Part shown: positions 6,860 to 29,165 of the stretch, piece by piece
How positions within the stretch are numbered: position 1 is the stretch's first letter
Layout of the letters: every line of letters begins with the position of its first letter
Origin: an uncultured delta proteobacterium
GTDB lineage: Bacteria > Desulfobacterota > Syntrophia > Syntrophales > CAMTWB01
DNA: 64,000 bases
Assembly: GCA_947085375.1 (NCBI GenBank)
Contig: CAMTWB010000007.1
Coordinates: 44,261 to 108,260 of the forward strand
Reading direction: 5' to 3'
Position numbers and translations under genes: made by a program
The notes under the pieces: model-generated
Databases searched by the model: none
What the model was told of the DNA's origin: nothing
What the model saw: the letters and a program-made list of their open reading frames with translations, nothing else

Positions 6860-8053
6860 TTACTTATCCTCCTTCTTGATAATATCTTCCGGCCAGAAAA
6901 AGACGTACGGATTCGCCCGGGGCGCCTTTACCATCTGCGGTACCGCAGGAAGCCCGACCGCGCGCAGGAATTGCCTCATCCCCAGACGCTTGATCAGCTC
7001 ACCCAGCCTTTCCCGTGACTTGCCGTGCTCATCCCACCAGTCTAAAACCTTCAACAGAAGATCTTTCACCTCGTCATAGGGCGGCTCCAGCTTCATAAAT
7101 GGCACGATAACCCAGGACAGGAGAGCCCCTTCCAAAATCGGCGCTTTCCCTCCCACCAGGATGGTGGCGCCCCCCTCCTCGCCCGGCCGGAGCGCTTTGG
7201 ACATCAGGTTAATACAGTGCATACACCGGGTGCAGTCTTCGTTGTAGATTTTCAATTTTTTCCCGTCCCATTCCATGCACCTGGTAGGACAGAGGTCACA
7301 AACTTCTTTCTGAATGTTCAGGCCGGATTCCGCATAGGCCGCTACTTCCGCCTGATCGATGCGGATGTCCCCCTTCCATGTTCCGATTATGGAAAAATCA
7401 GACCGAGCAATGGAGGCAACGCAGTCATTGGCGCAGGCCGAAACCTTAAGCTTGAACTTGTACGGGAACATGGGGCGGTGAATCTTGTCCTGAAAAGACA
7501 TGGTGATGTTGTAGCAGATATCCAGACTGTCGATACAGGCCCACTCACAGCGCGCCGGCCCTACGCAAGCGCTGGGCGTTCTCAGCGCCGACCCGGAACC
7601 GCCCAGGTCAAATCCCGCCTCGGTAAGGTCGTCAAAGCAGGGTTGAATATGTTCGGTGTTAGTGCCAAGTAAGATGATGTCACCCGTCGAGCCGTGCATA
7701 TTGGTCAGACCGCTGCCATGCTTATCCCAAACATCGCAAAGGCGACGCAGGGTATCTGTTTTGTAAAACCAGCCCGTGGGATGGTTCACCCTCATGGTGT
7801 GGAAAGCCTGCACATTCGGGAAGAGTTCCGGGCGATCCGAGTAGCGCCCGATTACTCCGGCGCCGTAACCCTTGACGCCGACAATCCCGCCGTGCTTCCA
7901 ATGCCCTATCTTTTCCTTATAGGAAAGTTCCAACTGATTGAGAAGATCCGCCGCCATAGGTTTCTTCTCGGCCGCTTGCTTCATATCCTTAACGAAGCTT
8001 GGCCACCTACCCTCTTCCAGCTGATCCAGAAGAGGTGTTTTCGAGTCCGCCAT
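6860..8053 (-). CDS. dsrA: Dissimilatory sulfite reductase alpha subunit
   Basis: 397 aa with a conserved DsrA N-terminus ([27 protein letters not shown]) and Cys clusters ([23 protein letters not shown]). Confidence 0.9.
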
Positions 8054-21600: not shown

Positions 21601-22677
21601 ATGTTTAGCTTGAAAGACATTTTTCCCAAGCGCAGTCAGGTTATAGGAATCGATGTCGGGTCGAGTTCGTTGAAGCTCTTGGACATCAAGGACTCTCCCC
21701 GCGGCCCAGAGCTGATCAAGTTTGGCCAGATAGCCATGCCCCGGGGGGCGATTGTGAATGGCGAGCTCCTGGAGCCGGGGGTCCTTTCCGACAGGCTGGT
21801 AGAGCTCGTTTCCTCCTGCGGTTGTAAGCGAAGACCGGTCGTTTCCTGCCTTTCGGGAAACTCGGTGCTGGTAAAAAAGGTCAATTTCAACCAGATGGGC
21901 GAGGAAGAACTACGCGAACTCCTCCAGGATGAGGGCGCCAAGTATCTCCCCTTTGAAGACATATCTCATGTGTACCTCGATTTCCAGGTTCTAAAGGGTT
22001 CTGATGTAAATCCCAACCAAATGGAAGTTCTGATCGTAGCGGCAAAGAAAGACGTCGTTGACAGCTATACGCAGGCCTTCCTCAAGGCAGGCTTGGAGGT
22101 GGTCATCATGGATGTCGACTCCTACGCCATTGAGACCATGTATGAAGAAAATTATGATTTCGATGACGACGAGGTAGTTGCTCTGATCGATATCGGCGCC
22201 AGCGCCACTAATATAAATGTGCTCAAGGGCGGCATTTCCATCTTCACCCGGTCCTTTTCCCTGGGGGGCAACATCATTACCGAAGCCATTGGGCGCGAGC
22301 TGGGGGTGGCCTTCGATGAAGCGGAGCTGATAAAGATAACGGGGGTTTCCGGCGAAACTGCGGAGAGAGAGAAGTTGCGCGAAAAAATAATCATTGAGGC
22401 CGAATCAATCATCCAGGAAATTGAGAGCTCTCTTGATTACCTCAAGTTCCAGGCCCGGGAATTTGTCAAGCAGATTGTGCTGTCCGGCGGTAGCGCAACT
22501 ATTGCCGATTTCGATCGTGTTATTGCCGATAGACTTAACATGGCGGCAAGTATCGTCGATCCCTTCAGGAAAATTCATGTCGATCCCCAAAAAATTTCGC
22601 CGACGATCATTGCCGCCGCAGCGCCTTTCGCGGCAGTTGGAGTGGGCCTGGCCTTAAGAAGATTGGGGGACAGATGA
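21601..22677 (+). CDS. pilM: Type IV pilus assembly ATPase-like protein PilM
   Basis: 358 aa with an actin-like fold pattern (IGIDVGSSSLK..., IDIGASATN). It is the first gene of the pilMNOPQ string. Confidence 0.85.
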   Translation: MFSLKDIFPKRSQVIGIDVGSSSLKLLDIKDSPRGPELIKFGQIAMPRGAIVNGELLEPGVLSDRLVELVSSCGCKRRPVVSCLSGNSVLVKKVNFNQMGEEELRELLQDEGAKYLPFEDISHVYLDFQVLKGSDVNPNQMEVLIVAAKKDVVDSYTQAFLKAGLEVVIMDVDSYAIETMYEENYDFDDDEVVALIDIGASATNINVLKGGISIFTRSFSLGGNIITEAIGRELGVAFDEAELIKITGVSGETAEREKLREKIIIEAESIIQEIESSLDYLKFQAREFVKQIVLSGGSATIADFDRVIADRLNMAASIVDPFRKIHVDPQKISPTIIAAAAPFAAVGVGLALRRLGDR

Positions 22678-23261
22678 TCCGGATTAATCTACTTCCCTAC
22701 TGGGAGAAGGGGAAAAAAGAGGACATCAGACGTCAGGTGTTTTTCCTGGCAGCTTCGTTTGTTTTGTTTATCCTTGTCCTGTCTTCTTTTTATATTTACA
22801 TCAGTTGGAGTAACTCTAGATTGGAAGCCCAGGTCAAAACGATGGAGCTAAGGACCGCAATGTTGGCCAAGGAGGTAGGGGATGTTGAGGCTAACCTGAA
22901 GAAAAAAAGACAATTTGAGCAGAAACTTGCGGTCATTGAAGAATTGGATAATAATCGCCTTTTTGCGCTCCGGCTTTTCCGGGAAATGAGCTTCTTCACG
23001 CCGATAGGCAACGTCTGGCTGAACAAAGTTGCTCAAAAGGGCACCGAAGTGCGGCTGGACGGCTATGCCAGGCATAACATGGCCGTGGCGCAATTCATGA
23101 AAAATGTGGAGAAATCGGGCTTCCTTACCGATGTTGATTTGGTTGTTTCCAAACGGGAGGAGGTGGAGAAAAGCATGGTGCAGCGTTTCGTGGTGACCGG
23201 TCGGCTTTTCGGAAATCAGCCGGGGACTTCGCTTAAAGAGGGGCCAGCGGGCCGAAACTGA
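22674..23261 (+). CDS. pilN: PilN
   Basis: 195 aa starting MIRINLLPY, with one TM helix. It overlaps the pilM stop by 4 nt. Confidence 0.8.
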   Translation: MIRINLLPYWEKGKKEDIRRQVFFLAASFVLFILVLSSFYIYISWSNSRLEAQVKTMELRTAMLAKEVGDVEANLKKKRQFEQKLAVIEELDNNRLFALRLFREMSFFTPIGNVWLNKVAQKGTEVRLDGYARHNMAVAQFMKNVEKSGFLTDVDLVVSKREEVEKSMVQRFVVTGRLFGNQPGTSLKEGPAGRN

Positions 23262-23263
23262 TT

Positions 23264-23941
23264 ATGGCGATAGAATCATTAGATGACATAAAAAAGCTTC
23301 CCCCCCGCCACAAGGCAATTGCGGCCGGTGTCCTATATGCCCTCCTGGCTTATTTTTTCTGGTTTTTCCTTCTCCAGTCGGCCTGGGAGGAAAGGGCCAA
23401 GCTACAATCATCCCTGGAGGAGCTGGGAAAAAAGATTGCCGCTCAGGAAAAGGTAGTGGCGCAAAAGGAAAAGTATCTGCGGGAGCTAAGAGCGCTCGAT
23501 GAGCAGTTTAGATTGGCACTCTTGAAACTGCCCGAACGCAAAGAGATCCCAGCGCTGCTTTGGTCCATTGCAAAGGAGGGAAAGATTTCCGGCCTCGATT
23601 TTGTTCTTTTTGAGCCAATTCCGCCGCCGCCGGCTTTGGAGCAAAAGCCGGTAGCCAAAAAAGAAGAGGCGAAAAAGCCGGAGGCTGACAAGGAACAGTT
23701 CTATGAAACCATACAGATACATATGACCGTAAGCGGGAGTTTTCACAAGACCGCCTTGTTTTTGGATCGCCTGGCTAAGCTTCCCCGGATCATAAATCTG
23801 GATCAGATAACAGTAGGCGATCGGGCAGGGGTTAAGGAACGCCCAGATGCCCTGACCACATCGGCCGTGATAAAAACCTACATGTTCAAGTCAACACCTT
23901 TAGATGGAAAGAAAGTCACGACTGATGAAAAGAGCAAATAG
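23264..23941 (+). CDS. pilO: PilO
   Basis: 225 aa with a TM helix, a coiled coil and a C-terminal ferredoxin-like region. The call rests partly on position. Confidence 0.7.
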   Translation: MAIESLDDIKKLPPRHKAIAAGVLYALLAYFFWFFLLQSAWEERAKLQSSLEELGKKIAAQEKVVAQKEKYLRELRALDEQFRLALLKLPERKEIPALLWSIAKEGKISGLDFVLFEPIPPPPALEQKPVAKKEEAKKPEADKEQFYETIQIHMTVSGSFHKTALFLDRLAKLPRIINLDQITVGDRAGVKERPDALTTSAVIKTYMFKSTPLDGKKVTTDEKSK

Positions 23942-24407
23942 GGTTCTGATTTCCAGTCTCATTTTTCTGGTTGTTCTCCTCAATAGCACCTCGACCTCAG
24001 CGGGGACTATGAAGAAGGAGCGGACTGTGGTCAAAACAGGCAGGGTCCTGGTGGCTAAAGCCGACCCGTTCAAACCATTTTTAGAGATGGATGCACAAGT
24101 GGCAAGGAATCGGGAAAAACTTCAGGCGCTGCCGCTGTCGCCCCTGTTGCGTTACCCCGTTGATACCTTCCGGCTGACGGGGATTGGCGGAGCACACGGT
24201 AGCCGTATGGCGGTGGTAGAAGACGGCAAGGGTCGATTTTATATCCTGCTTACGGGAAGCGATATCGGAACCAGAAATGGCCGGGTGGTGCAGATCCATC
24301 AGGATCACGTAATCATTGAAGAGCGGACAAAAAGATCCTCCGGTCAGGAAAAACGGGAAGAGATCAAACTGAGGCTTCATACGGGGGGGCAAGAGGGGAG
24401 GCCATGA
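23904..24407 (+). CDS. pilP: PilP-like lipoprotein/periplasmic protein
   Basis: 167 aa with a signal peptide. The call rests on position between pilO and pilQ. The start may be the ATG at 23925. Confidence 0.6.
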   Translation: MERKSRLMKRANRVLISSLIFLVVLLNSTSTSAGTMKKERTVVKTGRVLVAKADPFKPFLEMDAQVARNREKLQALPLSPLLRYPVDTFRLTGIGGAHGSRMAVVEDGKGRFYILLTGSDIGTRNGRVVQIHQDHVIIEERTKRSSGQEKREEIKLRLHTGGQEGRP

Positions 24408-27400
24408 ATATCTATCTTGATGACTTCGTAAAAAGTCCGGATGCGGCGTTGCGCTGCATCCATCGTCACTGCGGCGTACGAAAAGTACGCCTCATTCCTC
24501 GTGATTTGCGCGCCTTGCCTTCGTCCTTTTTACGAAGCCGTCCTAAATGCAAGGCCTTTGCAACTTTTTACGAGCTGGTCTATCTAAGGCTGTTTGTTGT
24601 CTTTATTCTTACCATCTTCGGGATCGTTAATTACCCGGCATATTCCCACGCAACTGCTCCTTCCCCGGCTGAGTCCGCCAAGGCCACAGGCTTTGTACAG
24701 GATGTAAATGTCGGTTATATCGAGAGTATCAGTTTCAGCAGGCCTCCCGGCAGGGAGAGGGTGGTCATTGCCCTGTCCAATCGTACTCTGCTTAGCTTCC
24801 CCAAGTTGCCCCTCTTGGCGGTGGAGGACCGGGCCTTATCAGTGCTCGTCAAGATGGAGGATATGTTTGTCCCGGAGCACCTGAGACGACCGCAGGGAGA
24901 AAATGTTCCCGGCAATATCGTCCGGGTGGCACCACATCAGGTCAGCCTGGATGGCAAGCAGTTCGTTCATCTGGTTGTCGATTTAAAGGAGAGGGTGCCC
25001 TATGCGGTTCGCCGTGAAGGCGGCAACATCATCTTGGATTTTAATGTCGTCTCACTGATGGATAAAGAGGCTACGACATCGGCCAGGCCGGCGCACGTCG
25101 TTCAGGCGTCTCAACCGGCGCCGCCTGAAGCAGCCAAGAAGCCGGCCCCAGAAGCCTCTCCGGCGGCAGCGGCTGCCGCTACCACCCAGCCTATTTCCCT
25201 TGATTTTCAAGAAGCAAACATCAAGAGCGTTCTTAGGCTTCTGGCGGAAATGGGCGGGGTCAATATCGTCTCCGGCGAGGATGTCAAGGGCGCAATTACC
25301 GTAAATCTGCGGAATGTGTCATGGGAACAGGCCCTGGATGTGATCCTTGACGTAAGTAACCTGACCCGCAGGGAAACGGGCAATGTTATTACCGTGATGA
25401 CCGTCGAGCGGATGAAGAAGGAGGAGGCGGAGCGGGCCTCTTTGGTGGAGGCCCAGCGCCGGGCCGAGATGGACCGAGCCAAGGCGGAGCTGGAGAAGGA
25501 TAAGGAGCGGCTGGTCCTGGAGAAGGAGCGTCAGCGTTTTCTGGAGGAACAGGAACGGCAAAAACTTGCTTTAGAAAAAGATCGCCAGCGGCTCTTGGCG
25601 GAGCAGGAGCAGCGGAAGCTGGCGTTGGAGAAGGAACGGCTGGAGCTGGAGGCCCGCGCCCGGGCGGAGAAGGAACGGCCAGTGGCAAAACCGCCCGTGG
25701 AGCCGAGTACGGATGCGTTCGTTGATACGGATATTCGCCGGGTTTTCCAGCTCTTGGCGGAGGAGAGCCGGAAGCGGGGCGATGTGGTCAGCATTGTGGC
25801 GGGTGATGATGTCAAGGGAACGTTAACCGCAGACTTTAAGGAGGTCCCCTGGGAGCAGAAGTTAGACACGGTTTTAGAGATCAAGGGGCTTGCGAAGCGC
25901 CGGGTCGGCAATGTCATTTCGGTGATGACCATGGATCGGATGAAGAAGGAGGAGGCCGAACGGGCGCTTCTTTTGGAGTCTCAGCGGCGGGCGGAATTGG
26001 AGCGGCGCAAGGCGGAGTTGGATAAGGAGAAGGAGCAGCTCGCCCTGGAGAAGGAACGGCAGCGTTTTCTGGAGGAGCAGGAACGGCAGAAACTGGCTTT
26101 AGAGCAGGAGCGGCAGCGGCTTTTGGAGGAGCAGGAGCGCCGGCGGTTGGCTCTGGAGAAGGAGCGGCTGGAGCTTGAGGCCCGGGTTCGGGCTGAGCAG
26201 GAGCGGCCGACGGTGACGCCGATTTCGAAACCGGCGGAGCCGGGGACGGATGTTTTTGTGGAGATGGATATTCGCCGGGTTTTCCAGCTTTTGGCCGAAG
26301 AGAGTCGTCGCAGGGGCGATGTCGTCAGCATTGTAGCGGGTGATGATGTCAAGGGTACGTTAACCGCAGACTTTAAGGATGTCCCCTGGGAGCAGAAGCT
26401 GGACACGGTTTTAGAGATCAAGGGGCTTGCGAAGCGCCGGGTCGGCAATGTCATTTCTGTGATGACCTTGGATCGGATGAAGAAGGAGGAGGCCGAACGG
26501 GCGCTTCTTTTGGAGTCTCAGCGGCGGGCGGAGTTGGAGCGGCGCAAGGCGGAGTTGGATAAGGAGAAGGAGCAGCTCGCCCTGGAGAAGGAGCGGCAGC
26601 GGCTTTTGGAGGAGCAGGAGCGCCGGCGGTTGGCTCTGGAGAAGGAGCGGCTGGAGCTTGAGGCCCGCGCCCGGGCGGAGAAGGAGCGGCCGGTGGTGAA
26701 GCCCCCGGAGCCAGGGGCGGATGTTTTTGTGGAGATGGATATCCGCCGAGTGTTTCAGCTTTTGGCAGAGGAGAGCCGTCGCCGGGGCGATCTGGTCAGC
26801 ATTGTGGCGGGTGATGATGTCAAGGGAACATTCACCGCAGACTTTAAGGATGTCCCCTGGGAGCAGAAGTTAGACACGGTTTTAGAGATCAAGGGGCTCG
26901 CGAAGCGTCGGGTTGGCAATGTCATTACCGTGATGACGGTGGAGCGGATGAAGAAGGAGGAGGCGGAACGGGCAGCCGCCGACCAGGTCCGCCGAAAGCT
27001 GGAGCAGGAGCATCGCGAGCGTGAGCAGAAGATACTGGCGGAGCAGATGAAGATCGACCAGGCCAAAAGGAAAGATGAAACATCATTGGCCAGACCGCCC
27101 CTTTTAACCAGAGTGGTGGGCGTCCGTTACGCCACCCCTAAGTCGCTGCAGGAAAATCTTCAGGAACTGCTTTTGAAGGATCAGCGGGAAGGCATTCCCC
27201 CGGGGTCTGTTCGGGTCGATGAGCACAGTAATTCCCTGATCATCCAGGCCACCAAGGAGGACATGGGCCGCCTGATTGCCCTGATCGAAAAGGTGGACAA
27301 AGTCACCCCGCAAATATCGATCAAGGCCAATATCATCGAGACCACCAAGGATACGGCCCGTGACCTTGGCATCCTGTGGGGTGGAGTATGGGGTCAGAAG

Positions 27401-28150
27401 GTCGGCGACCAGGGGCTGTACGTAACCCCGGGCGGCATAGGGTCTGTTCCCGGGGCTACAACACCGCCCGGCCAGGCATTTTCCGGGGGGTATACGCCTA
27501 CCTCCGGGTCCCGGGGTATCAGCGGGCAGGGATTTGGCGTTAATTTCCCGGCCACAGCCATGACTGGAGCCGCTTCAGGGTCTTTGGGGGTCATGTTTGG
27601 CGCCATCGGGGGAAATATCCTGGAGGTACAATTGAATGCCTTGCAAAAGGATGGCAAGCTGAACATCCTTTCCAGCCCCCAGATTACCACCCTGGATAAT
27701 CAAATGGCATTCACTGAAAACGGTGAAAAGATACCCTATGTGTCTATCGATAAGGATGGCCGGCCGGAGGTGAAATTCCAGGACGCCGTCTTGAGGTTGG
27801 AAATTACTCCCAATACCATCGATGACAAGACGATGAAGATGAAAATAATAATCAAGAAGGATGAAGTTGATACCACTCGTAACGTGGCGGGCAATCCGTT
27901 TATAATAAAGAAGCATACCGAAACAAACCTGATCGTCCAGGATGGCGAAACAATTGTAATCTCCGGATTGACCAGACAAAAGAACATGGAAGGCACCAGC
28001 GGGATTCCCTGGCTGAAAGATATTCCCGTCCTGGGGTGGCTGTTTAAGGGGGAAGGAAAGAAGGAGTCAATGGAAGAGGTCTTAATCTTTATTACTCCCA
28101 ATATTCTCAAGGCCGGCGCTGTCGCCGGCATCCAGACGGGACAGCCGTAG
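24404..28150 (+). CDS. pilQ: Type IV pilus secretin PilQ, expanded form (AMIN, 4 N0/STN-like modules with E/R/K-rich helices, secretin core)
   Basis: The C-terminal secretin blocks are LNALQKDGKLNILSSPQITTLDNQ, ETIVISGL, GIPWLKDIPVLGWLFK and EVLIFITPNIL. The start ATG overlaps the pilP stop as ATGA. The effective start and signal peptide are unclear (see findings). Confidence 0.85.
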   Translation: MNIYLDDFVKSPDAALRCIHRHCGVRKVRLIPRDLRALPSSFLRSRPKCKAFATFYELVYLRLFVVFILTIFGIVNYPAYSHATAPSPAESAKATGFVQDVNVGYIESISFSRPPGRERVVIALSNRTLLSFPKLPLLAVEDRALSVLVKMEDMFVPEHLRRPQGENVPGNIVRVAPHQVSLDGKQFVHLVVDLKERVPYAVRREGGNIILDFNVVSLMDKEATTSARPAHVVQASQPAPPEAAKKPAPEASPAAAAAATTQPISLDFQEANIKSVLRLLAEMGGVNIVSGEDVKGAITVNLRNVSWEQALDVILDVSNLTRRETGNVITVMTVERMKKEEAERASLVEAQRRAEMDRAKAELEKDKERLVLEKERQRFLEEQERQKLALEKDRQRLLAEQEQRKLALEKERLELEARARAEKERPVAKPPVEPSTDAFVDTDIRRVFQLLAEESRKRGDVVSIVAGDDVKGTLTADFKEVPWEQKLDTVLEIKGLAKRRVGNVISVMTMDRMKKEEAERALLLESQRRAELERRKAELDKEKEQLALEKERQRFLEEQERQKLALEQERQRLLEEQERRRLALEKERLELEARVRAEQERPTVTPISKPAEPGTDVFVEMDIRRVFQLLAEESRRRGDVVSIVAGDDVKGTLTADFKDVPWEQKLDTVLEIKGLAKRRVGNVISVMTLDRMKKEEAERALLLESQRRAELERRKAELDKEKEQLALEKERQRLLEEQERRRLALEKERLELEARARAEKERPVVKPPEPGADVFVEMDIRRVFQLLAEESRRRGDLVSIVAGDDVKGTFTADFKDVPWEQKLDTVLEIKGLAKRRVGNVITVMTVERMKKEEAERAAADQVRRKLEQEHREREQKILAEQMKIDQAKRKDETSLARPPLLTRVVGVRYATPKSLQENLQELLLKDQREGIPPGSVRVDEHSNSLIIQATKEDMGRLIALIEKVDKVTPQISIKANIIETTKDTARDLGILWGGVWGQKVGDQGLYVTPGGIGSVPGATTPPGQAFSGGYTPTSGSRGISGQGFGVNFPATAMTGAASGSLGVMFGAIGGNILEVQLNALQKDGKLNILSSPQITTLDNQMAFTENGEKIPYVSIDKDGRPEVKFQDAVLRLEITPNTIDDKTMKMKIIIKKDEVDTTRNVAGNPFIIKKHTETNLIVQDGETIVISGLTRQKNMEGTSGIPWLKDIPVLGWLFKGEGKKESMEEVLIFITPNILKAGAVAGIQTGQP
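24422..24545. repeat. Repeat element with CTTCGTAAAAAGT / ACTTTTTACGAAG-type termini lying inside the 5' end of the pilQ ORF
   Basis: Termini GACTTCGTAAAAAGTCCGG ... CGTCCTTTTTACGAAGCCGTC. A related motif ACTTTTTACGAG occurs at 24573-24590 and 8306-8325. Confidence 0.6.
25195..26990 (+). repeat. Intragenic tandem duplication in pilQ (N0/STN-like module plus charged helix; nt periods 537 and 471 between the three youngest copies)
   Basis: Near-identical about 200-nt blocks start at 25730, 26267 and 26738. An older copy lies at about 25195. Confidence 0.9.
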
Positions 28151-28199: not shown

Positions 28200-29165
28200 A
28201 TGAAACATTTGGCCAGATTGACATTCATAGCCTTTGTTGCCATCATGCTGGGGGTCGCAGCAGGCTGCGCCGGACCCAAGTATCAAAAGGGGATGAAAAA
28301 CTACAACCCGGATGATCCGGCGGCGGCGGTGCGGCAGTTGCAACCTCTGGCTCAAGGGGGCAATGCCGATGCTCAGTTCAATCTTGGGTCTCTTTACTAT
28401 CAGGGACGGGGGGTGCCGCAGGACTACCAGGAGGCAATCAAATGGTTTAGCAAGTCGGCCGATCAGGGGCATAGCGCCGCCCAGGTCAACTTAGGCGCCC
28501 TCTATGCCCAGGGCATTTCGGGCGTTATCGCTAAAGATTATCCGCAGGCGCTCAAGTGGCATATCCTGGCTGCAGCCCAGGGGGACGCAGAAGCCGTAAC
28601 GTTGCGGGACAACCTGGCAGTAAAGATGACACCGGCACAAATTGCCGAAGGACAGCGGCTCGCCCGGGAATTCAAACCGGAAGATATGCATACCCGGGCA
28701 CTCAAAGAGATGCTCAAGTCGGCGGAAAAAGGCGACCATCTGGCCCAGTTTAAGGTTGGCCTGATGTACTACTTTGGCCAGGGGACCGTTTTGAATTACC
28801 GCGAGGCAATCGGATGGTTTAAGAAGGCGGGCCTGCAGGGTAATCCTTTGGCCCAATCCAATGTCGGCTACATGTACGAAAAGGGTGAGGGAGTGCCACA
28901 GGATTTTGTGGAGGCGGCAAAATGGTATCGACTCGCCTCGCTCAGAGGAAACGCCCAGGCCCAGTTCTCGCTGGGCTCCATGTACGAGAAGGGCTACGGA
29001 GTTCAACTGGACGAAGTCCAGGCGCTCATGTGGTTCACCCTGGCGGCCGCGCAGGGCGGGACCCCAGCCAGAGCAGCCAGGGACCGGATAACCGCCTGGA
29101 TGACGCCGACCCAGATCGCAGAAGCCCAGCGCCTGGCCCGGGAATTCAAGGTGGTGGATAAATGA
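28200..29165 (+). CDS. Sel1-repeat (SLR/TPR-like) lipoprotein
   Basis: 321 aa with a lipobox (LGVAAGC). About 7 Sel1 units are present, such as AQFNLGSLYYQGRGVPQDYQEAIKWF. Two copies of MTPxQIAEGQRLAREFK occur. It lies directly after pilQ and could be a pilotin-type partner; that is inference. Confidence 0.8.
   Translation: MKHLARLTFIAFVAIMLGVAAGCAGPKYQKGMKNYNPDDPAAAVRQLQPLAQGGNADAQFNLGSLYYQGRGVPQDYQEAIKWFSKSADQGHSAAQVNLGALYAQGISGVIAKDYPQALKWHILAAAQGDAEAVTLRDNLAVKMTPAQIAEGQRLAREFKPEDMHTRALKEMLKSAEKGDHLAQFKVGLMYYFGQGTVLNYREAIGWFKKAGLQGNPLAQSNVGYMYEKGEGVPQDFVEAAKWYRLASLRGNAQAQFSLGSMYEKGYGVQLDEVQALMWFTLAAAQGGTPARAARDRITAWMTPTQIAEAQRLAREFKVVDK

Follow-up and report, generated by a model that had tools for sequence, protein, structure and literature searches.

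How a secretin pore in the outer membrane is joined to the cell wall and to the assembly platform of the inner membrane depends on the periplasmic domains of the protein, and the described ways to lengthen this part are the addition of N1-type rings, as in Thermus, and of AMIN domains, as in Myxococcus. At the locus described here the PilP-docking N0 domain itself is multiplied. It lies in a 64,000-nucleotide stretch (hereafter the window) of the genome of an uncultured Syntrophales bacterium, where the open reading frame at 24404–28150 of the forward strand encodes the type IVa pilus secretin PilQ. In this protein the usual periplasmic module of PilQ, one N0 with a short helical connector to N1, is duplicated and amplified, so that four N0 domains are present, each followed by a long charged helix. 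An earlier reading of the window, made from its sequence only, had proposed a greatly elongated stalk with rigid spacers, perhaps for an unusually wide periplasm or a sheath layer; the analysis reported here favours a length-tolerant, spring-like tether or extended vestibule, which we consider probable.

Overall architecture

The frame encodes 1248 residues, its start overlaps the stop of pilP, and it is the last gene of a pilM–pilN–pilO–pilP–pilQ operon, as assigned by Pfam on the neighbouring genes. The product scores 503.5 bits against the NCBIfam model of the type IV pilus secretin PilQ (TIGR02515; cut-off 284.35), and the Pfam scan returned four STN stretches, one Secretin_N domain (PF03958; residues 902–969, 6.5e-10) and one Secretin domain (PF00263; residues 1079–1236, 3.6e-45). 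The N0 units match the N0 domains of the solved PilQ structures from P. aeruginosa, N. meningitidis, V. cholerae and M. xanthus with E-values of 5e-12 to 2e-9. A PilQ with four N0/STN modules, as the sequence-only reading had described it, is thus borne out by Pfam, by TIGR02515 and by the PDB matches. Read from the N-terminus, the protein consists of a signal peptide, a single AMIN-fold domain, the four N0/STN domains, N1 and the secretin core (Table 1).

The mature monomer was modelled with AlphaFold2 (AF2) from an alignment of 34 rows, giving a mean predicted local distance difference test (pLDDT) score of 72.9. The top Foldseek match of the whole model is V. cholerae PilQ (6w6m; E 2.6e-21), and the N0 of N. 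meningitidis (4ar0) superposes on the model with an rmsd of 2.7 Å (Foldseek). Pro-rich linkers of 14–18 residues, modelled with low confidence, lie between the end of each helix and the next N0. The N-terminal domain is assigned by its predicted fold as a single AMIN domain: modelled alone it reached a pLDDT of 82, and Foldseek matched it to the AMIN-bearing AmiC (4bin; E 3.8e-4), to N. meningitidis PilQ B2 (4aqz) and to M. xanthus PilQ (3jc8) with TMq values of 0.58–0.60. By sequence, the Pfam match to AMIN is sub-threshold (E 0.07–0.11), and a PDB profile search for this domain gave no match.

Table 1. Features of PilQ and of the genes beside it, in window positions
Feature	Positions	Strand	Basis or remark
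168-nt in-frame insertion, dispersed repeat element	24419–24586	+	Follows codon 5; lies before the hydrophobic core of the signal peptide
AMIN-fold domain (aa ~96–216)	24689–25051	+	Eight-stranded beta domain (aa ~104–214 in AF2), pLDDT ~90
Pro/Ala-rich linker (aa 217–264)	25052–25195	+	Disordered in AF2
Unit 1: A-type N0 (aa 265–333), 88-aa helix (aa 334–421), Pro-rich linker	25196–25717	+	STN match, AF2
Unit 2: B-type N0 (aa 439–509), 90-aa helix (aa 510–599), linker	25718–26254	+	STN match, AF2
Unit 3: B-type N0 (aa 618–688), 72-aa helix (aa 689–760), linker	26255–26725	+	Repeat finder, AF2
Unit 4: B-type N0 (aa 775–845), 50-aa helix (aa 846–895), the N0–N1 connector	26726–27088	+	STN match, AF2
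N1 (Secretin_N, aa ~901–981) and secretin beta-barrel core to aa 1248	27104–28147	+	Pfam, AF2, Foldseek
pilM	21601–22677	+	Pfam PilM_2, 2e-63
pilN	22674–23261	+	Pfam PilN, 4.5e-17
pilO	23264–23941	+	Pfam PilO, 7.7e-26
pilP	23904–24407	+	Pfam PilP, 1.8e-9
Sel1-repeat lipoprotein (321 aa)	28200–29165	+	Pfam Sel1, 5.3e-51; directly 3′ of pilQ

Focusing on the type IVa PilQs of known structure (V. cholerae 6w6m, P. aeruginosa 6ve2, N. meningitidis 4ar0/4av2 and M. xanthus 3jc8), the order of AMIN, N0, helical connector, N1 and secretin is the same, and the pilMNOPQ operon is common to both, whereas the window protein has four N0 domains rather than one and combines in a single chain two N0 types, A and B, that have diverged from each other. 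Its connectors are 50–90 residues long, compared with ~23 in single-N0 secretins; the gap from N0 to N1 is 54 residues, against a median of 23 (quartiles 23–24) in 102 such secretins recovered in the analysis, and 105–110 residues separate successive N0 domains. A 32-Å helix after N0 has been described in V. cholerae PilQ as specific to type IVa pili, its authors noting that secretins of type II and type III secretion systems lack one (PMC7545093).

The charged helices

In the AF2 model one continuous helix follows each N0, with lengths of 88, 90, 72 and 50 residues and pLDDT values of 81–91. The E/R/K-rich helix that the sequence-only reading placed after every module therefore stands, but its proposed length of 90–100 residues does not. 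That reading had also set its helices against disordered linkers without a conserved length; the segments are predicted as continuous helices, not disordered, and their length is not conserved among relatives. Helical hairpins were considered and rejected on the single continuous helices given by AF2, which is weak evidence as the model is a monomer.

The helices contain 25–30% acidic and 29–32% basic residues with 5–10% Gln, and their net charge is −1 to +2. Opposite-charge i/i+4 pairs number 19–23 in helices 1–3 and 14 in the 51-residue fourth segment; the fourth helix resembles the other three over its first ~12 residues only. All are built from nine-residue repeats (LALEKERQR, FLEEQERQK and similar), and a period of nine residues dominates the hydrophobic pattern of helices 1–3 (normalized power 2.0–4.7), with no significant power in these helices at 3.5, 3.6 or 3.67 residues (≤1.4). 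The hydrophobic heptad or hendecad repeat of canonical coiled coils is thus not found, and since leucines spaced by nine residues fall on opposite faces of a helix, no heptad-type seam is formed. From the E/R/K composition, the balanced charge and the lack of a 3.5–3.67-residue hydrophobic periodicity, the helices look like E/R/K single α-helices (SAHs) rather than classical coiled coils, in agreement with the earlier suggestion of SAH-like spacers.

Known SAH domains, such as those of myosin levers and INCENP (PMC4183817, PMC4571873, PMC5378345), have the same composition of ~30% acidic and ~30% basic residues with balanced charge and, like the window helices, dense i/i+4 pairs, no heptad seam and a continuous predicted helix between folded domains. 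The window helices differ in being bacterial and periplasmic and in having a higher Leu content in a strict nine-residue repeat, and the continuous helices predicted by AF2 do not in themselves indicate monomers. A distinctly less likely arrangement is that the helices of the 12–15-mer oligomerize side by side, as coiled coils, a palisade or a barrel, and form a closed tube between the N0 rings. Leu, Phe, Met, Val and Ile make up ~20% of helices 1–3 and recur every nine residues on alternating faces, which could provide two contact seams, one for either neighbouring helix, but neither a heptad nor a hendecad period accompanies them, and the balanced charge and the dense i/i+4 salt-bridge pairs are typical of single helices. 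Moreover, the hydrophobic residues of the charged segment in the metagenomic relative P0002 are reduced to about one Leu per nine residues, and helix length is not conserved.

Two N0 types and their origin

A repeat finder detected three direct nucleotide copies, two of them 91% and 81% identical to the reference copy; the distances between the copies, 537 and 471 nt, are exactly the two periods noted earlier, and Tandem Repeats Finder gave a period of 471 nt with internal periods of 27 and 54 nt. The N0 domains of units 2–4, which we call B-type, are 90–96% identical to each other in protein sequence and ~50% identical to the A-type N0 of unit 1; a five-residue insert, SRKRG, marks the B-type, and the A-type resembles the canonical PilQ N0. 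Over whole units the nucleotide identity is 92% between units 2 and 3, 72–76% for unit 4 and ~69% for unit 1, so that the high identity between units claimed from the sequence applies to units 2 and 3 and not to the outer two. Helix 3 differs from helix 2 by the clean absence of a block of 18 residues (54 nt), and this indel together with the 27/54-nt tandem repeats shows how helix length changes.

All two-unit relatives carry an A-type N0 followed by a B-type N0, and the B-type domains of all family members form one clade with a support of 0.99. Both types are ~62–65% identical to the single N0 of the sister families (65% for unit 1). The single B clade and the equal closeness of A and B to the sister-family N0 are consistent with one internal duplication in the family ancestor, after which both copies diverged.

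The ratio of nonsynonymous to synonymous substitution rates (ω) is 0.12, 0.06 and 0.17 between pairs of B-type N0 domains, and the helices give 0.15; in the comparison with the sister species it is 0.07–0.13, with 0.045 for the core. These values indicate purifying selection on all units, on the helices and on the core. The B-type N0 domains are 89–91% identical in nucleotides within the window compared with 82–85% to the units of the sister species, as expected from the recent duplication or concerted evolution that the sequence-only reading had put forward. The synonymous divergence (dS) is 0.08 between helices 2 and 3, 0.37–0.49 between N0 domains and 0.55–0.98 between orthologues, and this mosaic pattern points to gene conversion, that is, concerted evolution, possibly on top of a recent amplification.

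Judging from the comparison with relatives, the family ancestor would have duplicated N0, with the A-type copy distal, by AMIN, and the B-type copy proximal. The window lineage would then have amplified the unit of B-type N0 and helix to three copies, kept alike by gene conversion, and the connectors may have been lengthened by slippage of 27/54-nt (9/18-residue) repeats into E/R/K/Q-rich helices of 50–90 residues.

Reliability of the unit count and of the gene

A tandem array of similar units carries a risk of assembly collapse, as was pointed out in the first reading. For the window this risk is low, at most 79 exact nucleotides being common to two units, and repeat collapse in the array appears unlikely; it is real in a sister genome, a separate assembly that is 89% identical (L001; JBBIRO010000010.1). 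There, a 100-N scaffold gap (7560–7659) lies inside the N0–helix array between flanking copies that are 100% identical over more than 360 nt, the two visible B-type N0 domains are 100% identical in nucleotides, and the helix after unit 2 equals helix 1 for 215 nt. Owing to the gap and the identical copies, three or four units are both possible in this relative, and its PilQ length of 1105 residues, which includes the gap, is unreliable.

If repeats had been joined wrongly in the window, or variants of different strains set one behind the other, the count of four would be an artefact. The genome is a draft of 51 contigs, the sister assembly has its gap between identical copies of the same array, and the exact PilQ protein was found on one contig only. 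Nevertheless, the longest exact match between any two units is 79 nt, no junction of helix, Pro-rich linker and N0 is broken or out of frame, the differences between units are the clean 54-nt indel and mostly synonymous changes (ω 0.06–0.17), and the sister assembly, which is independent, likewise requires three units or more. We consider such an artefact very unlikely. A metagenome scan with the whole array yielded 16 loci, all with a single N0, and no independent assembly with three or four units.

A dispersed repeat element of 168 nt interrupts the signal-peptide region of the window gene. It is flanked by a TCTATCT target duplication, with boundaries ambiguous by ~7 nt, and the DNA alignment shows that neither congener (L001, L002) has it; the element has 112 blastn matches genome-wide, many of 160–175 nt at 84–90% identity. 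Its 56 codons lengthen the n-region of the signal peptide by 56 residues. Since the insertion occurs in this genome only, and since relatives vary freely in copy number and in the length of the helices, one could suppose neutral repeat expansion in a decaying gene, with the insertion marking loss of function. This supposition is extremely improbable: no stop interrupts the insert or any of the 1248 codons, N0 domains, helices and core are under purifying selection, and relatives without the insertion share the multi-unit architecture.

Relatives and distribution

The genome belongs to the Syntrophales, and the records of its relatives are named Syntrophobacterales, Smithellaceae or Syntrophales. 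The GTDB family consists of four genomes, namely the window genome with four units (1248 residues), two of the same genus with at least three units (G002, the sister genome L001) and with two units (G001; 816 residues), and one of another genus with two units (G003/P0003; 857 residues). The first reading had proposed a survey of PilQ length and N0 number in related genomes; the family gave two, two, at least three and four units, and the sister families a single N0. Across 151 sampled genomes, which represent 24 families of the order, the STN-bearing frames listed outside the family measure 220–727 residues, all of them, versus 816–1276 within it. The single-N0 PilQs of two sister families (612–643 residues) share the same pilMNOPQ–lipoprotein synteny, their N0 is joined to N1 by 8–20 residues, and their core is 68–73% identical to that of the window; by comparison, a single-N0 PilQ with a short connector appears to be the ancestral state.

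In the metagenomic relative P0002 (933 residues, same synteny), two units are separated by one charged segment of ~178 residues with hydrophobic residues down to about one Leu in nine. The first helix thus measures 46 (G001), ~80, 88 (window) and ~178 residues (P0002) across the family and its relatives.

The genome also encodes a short paralogous secretin on contig C14 (G000), a lipoprotein of 534 residues with one N0 and a connector of ~23 residues, which is 70% identical to the window PilQ from N1 onwards. Its gene stands in a complete second type IV pilus-like cluster (C14 15411–27953), in which, with names read from the sequences, the secretin is accompanied by a PilT-like ATPase, a 640-residue PilM/N-like fusion, PilO- and PilP-like proteins, an AAA protein of ExeA/MshM type, PilB, PilC and a sigma-54 activator. 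A chimeric origin of the window core from this paralogue was considered and rejected, because the single-N0 sister-family PilQs in the same synteny are equally close (68–73%). As a separate observation, the cores of pilMNOP-linked PilQs in the Syntrophales fall into two clades, 54–73% and 31–42% identical to the window core, and families appear to keep one or both.

An N0 profile scanned against 1.84 billion representative proteins indicated that tandem N0 is not unique to the window family. A secretin of Candidatus Desantisbacteria (PIP42429.1) likewise has four tandem N0 domains ahead of the secretin, but with ~20-residue linkers and no long helices. Two Acidobacteriota PilQs from 'Ca. Acidoferrum' (P0004 and P0057) have tandem N0 domains ahead of the secretin and charged gaps like those of the window protein, each N0 being followed by a 65-residue gap of which 83–86% is E/D/K/R/Q/A, but only two units; as these proteins are unrelated in lineage, their tandem N0 is of independent origin. 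Of the proteins seen, only those of the window family and, in two-unit form, of these Acidobacteriota combine tandem N0 with long E/R/K helices. Five metagenomic proteins (P0050, P0055, P0075, P0077 and P0092) have 4–7 tandem STN/N0-like domains and no secretin core, some of them with C-terminal coiled-coil-like or other domains, and they look like an uncharacterized class. In the literature on PilQ with tandem N0, coiled coils or SAH domains, no description of the N0–helix architecture was found.

Function of the N0–helix array

With the helices fully extended, their 300 residues at 0.15 nm each give ~45 nm, and more than 55 nm together with the four N0 domains. The usual distance between the two membranes of Gram-negative bacteria is roughly 25–35 nm. 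One translation of these lengths is a rigid multi-tier stalk of four N0 rings with the helices as pillars, forming a conduit of ~55–60 nm across a wide periplasm or an extra envelope layer. The purifying selection on the units agrees with such a stalk, and Thermus PilQ spans most of a wide periplasm with extra rings (PMC5745081). The protein of Thermus thermophilus (757 residues, six stacked rings N0–N5) is likewise a type IV pilus secretin lengthened by added ring-type domains, but its extra rings are N1-like (beta-alpha-beta-beta-alpha) and packed directly, with no long helices (PMC5745081). The extra domains of the window PilQ are of N0/STN type, are set apart by charged helices of 72–90 residues and Pro-rich linkers, and belong to a type of PilQ whose length varies among close relatives; direct stacking of N1-like rings is not what was found here.

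A rigid ruler that measures out a wide periplasm is hard to reconcile with the variation of unit number and helix length among close relatives: one genus spans 816 residues, with two units and a 46-residue first helix, to 1248 residues with four, and a metagenomic relative has the single ~178-residue helix. PilM, PilN, PilO and PilP are of ordinary size in the one-, two- and four-unit genomes, and the lack of elongation in PilN, PilO and PilP argues in the same direction. Finally, the second pilus-type cluster of the same genome, with its canonical short secretin, must span the same envelope, so that this envelope can be spanned at normal width. The rigid stalk of the sequence-only reading is therefore not supported by these comparisons, and we regard it as unlikely.

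The length-tolerant tether or vestibule, not a fixed-length ruler, is the more probable function of the amplified array. Under this proposal N1 and the secretin core are predicted to form the usual outer-membrane pore, the helices would act as semi-rigid, spring-like SAH spacers, and helices and flexible Pro-rich hinges would string the extra N0 domains into a long tether or vestibule. Through this tether the pore would be linked to the AMIN domain, which binds peptidoglycan, and to the N0 on which PilP of the inner-membrane platform would dock. SAH domains have been documented both as spacers and as constant-force springs (PMC4183817).

Several points weigh against this proposal. The four-unit count rests on one assembly and a gapped sister assembly, and with the repeat element in the signal-peptide region, export of PilQ in this strain is not certain. 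The Leu, Phe, Met, Val and Ile content of the helices (16% in the fourth) is above that of classical SAHs. In addition, AF2 applied to a monomer gives long helices whenever a sequence is rich in E/R/K, and it does not separate a single helix from a coiled coil or palisade in a 12–15-mer.

A further possibility, tentative and rather unlikely in our estimate, is that the array is a chain of docking rings on spring-like single helices that extends beyond 50 nm or compresses and so couples the pilus pore to the inner-membrane motor. If this were true, the machine could keep its connection where the periplasm is variable or locally very wide, or could absorb retraction force, and slippage of repeats together with duplication of units would quickly adjust the length of the chain.

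Neighbouring genes

The genes pilM to pilP (21601–24407, forward strand), directly 5′ of pilQ, encode the inner-membrane alignment subcomplex, and their order and similar sizes are kept in the one-, two- and four-unit relatives. A Sel1 gene (Pfam) also lies 3′ of pilQ in one relative (L037), and lipoprotein-like frames of similar size and N-terminus, recognized by sequence similarity only, occupy this position in five others (L001 and L033–L036). The pilQ–lipoprotein synteny thus looks conserved in relatives with one, two and four units, and the Sel1-repeat lipoprotein is a candidate pilotin-like or accessory protein of PilQ.

Conclusion

In conclusion, this study reports a PilQ with four N0–helix units as a rare, lineage-specific variant of a well-known protein. 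In place of N1-type rings or AMIN domains, the window lineage multiplies the PilP-docking N0 itself, spaced by charged helices of 7–13 nm, and the fully extended array, at more than 55 nm, exceeds an ordinary periplasm. Type IV pili are listed among the appendages used for electron transfer (PMC5285504), which would make the pilus machinery of physiological interest in the Syntrophales. If the helices are true SAHs, they would clearly exemplify such a spacer or spring in the periplasm, as part of a trans-envelope machine, and the family, with first helices of 46, ~80, 88 and ~178 residues and two to four units, offers a natural length series for the distance between pore and platform.

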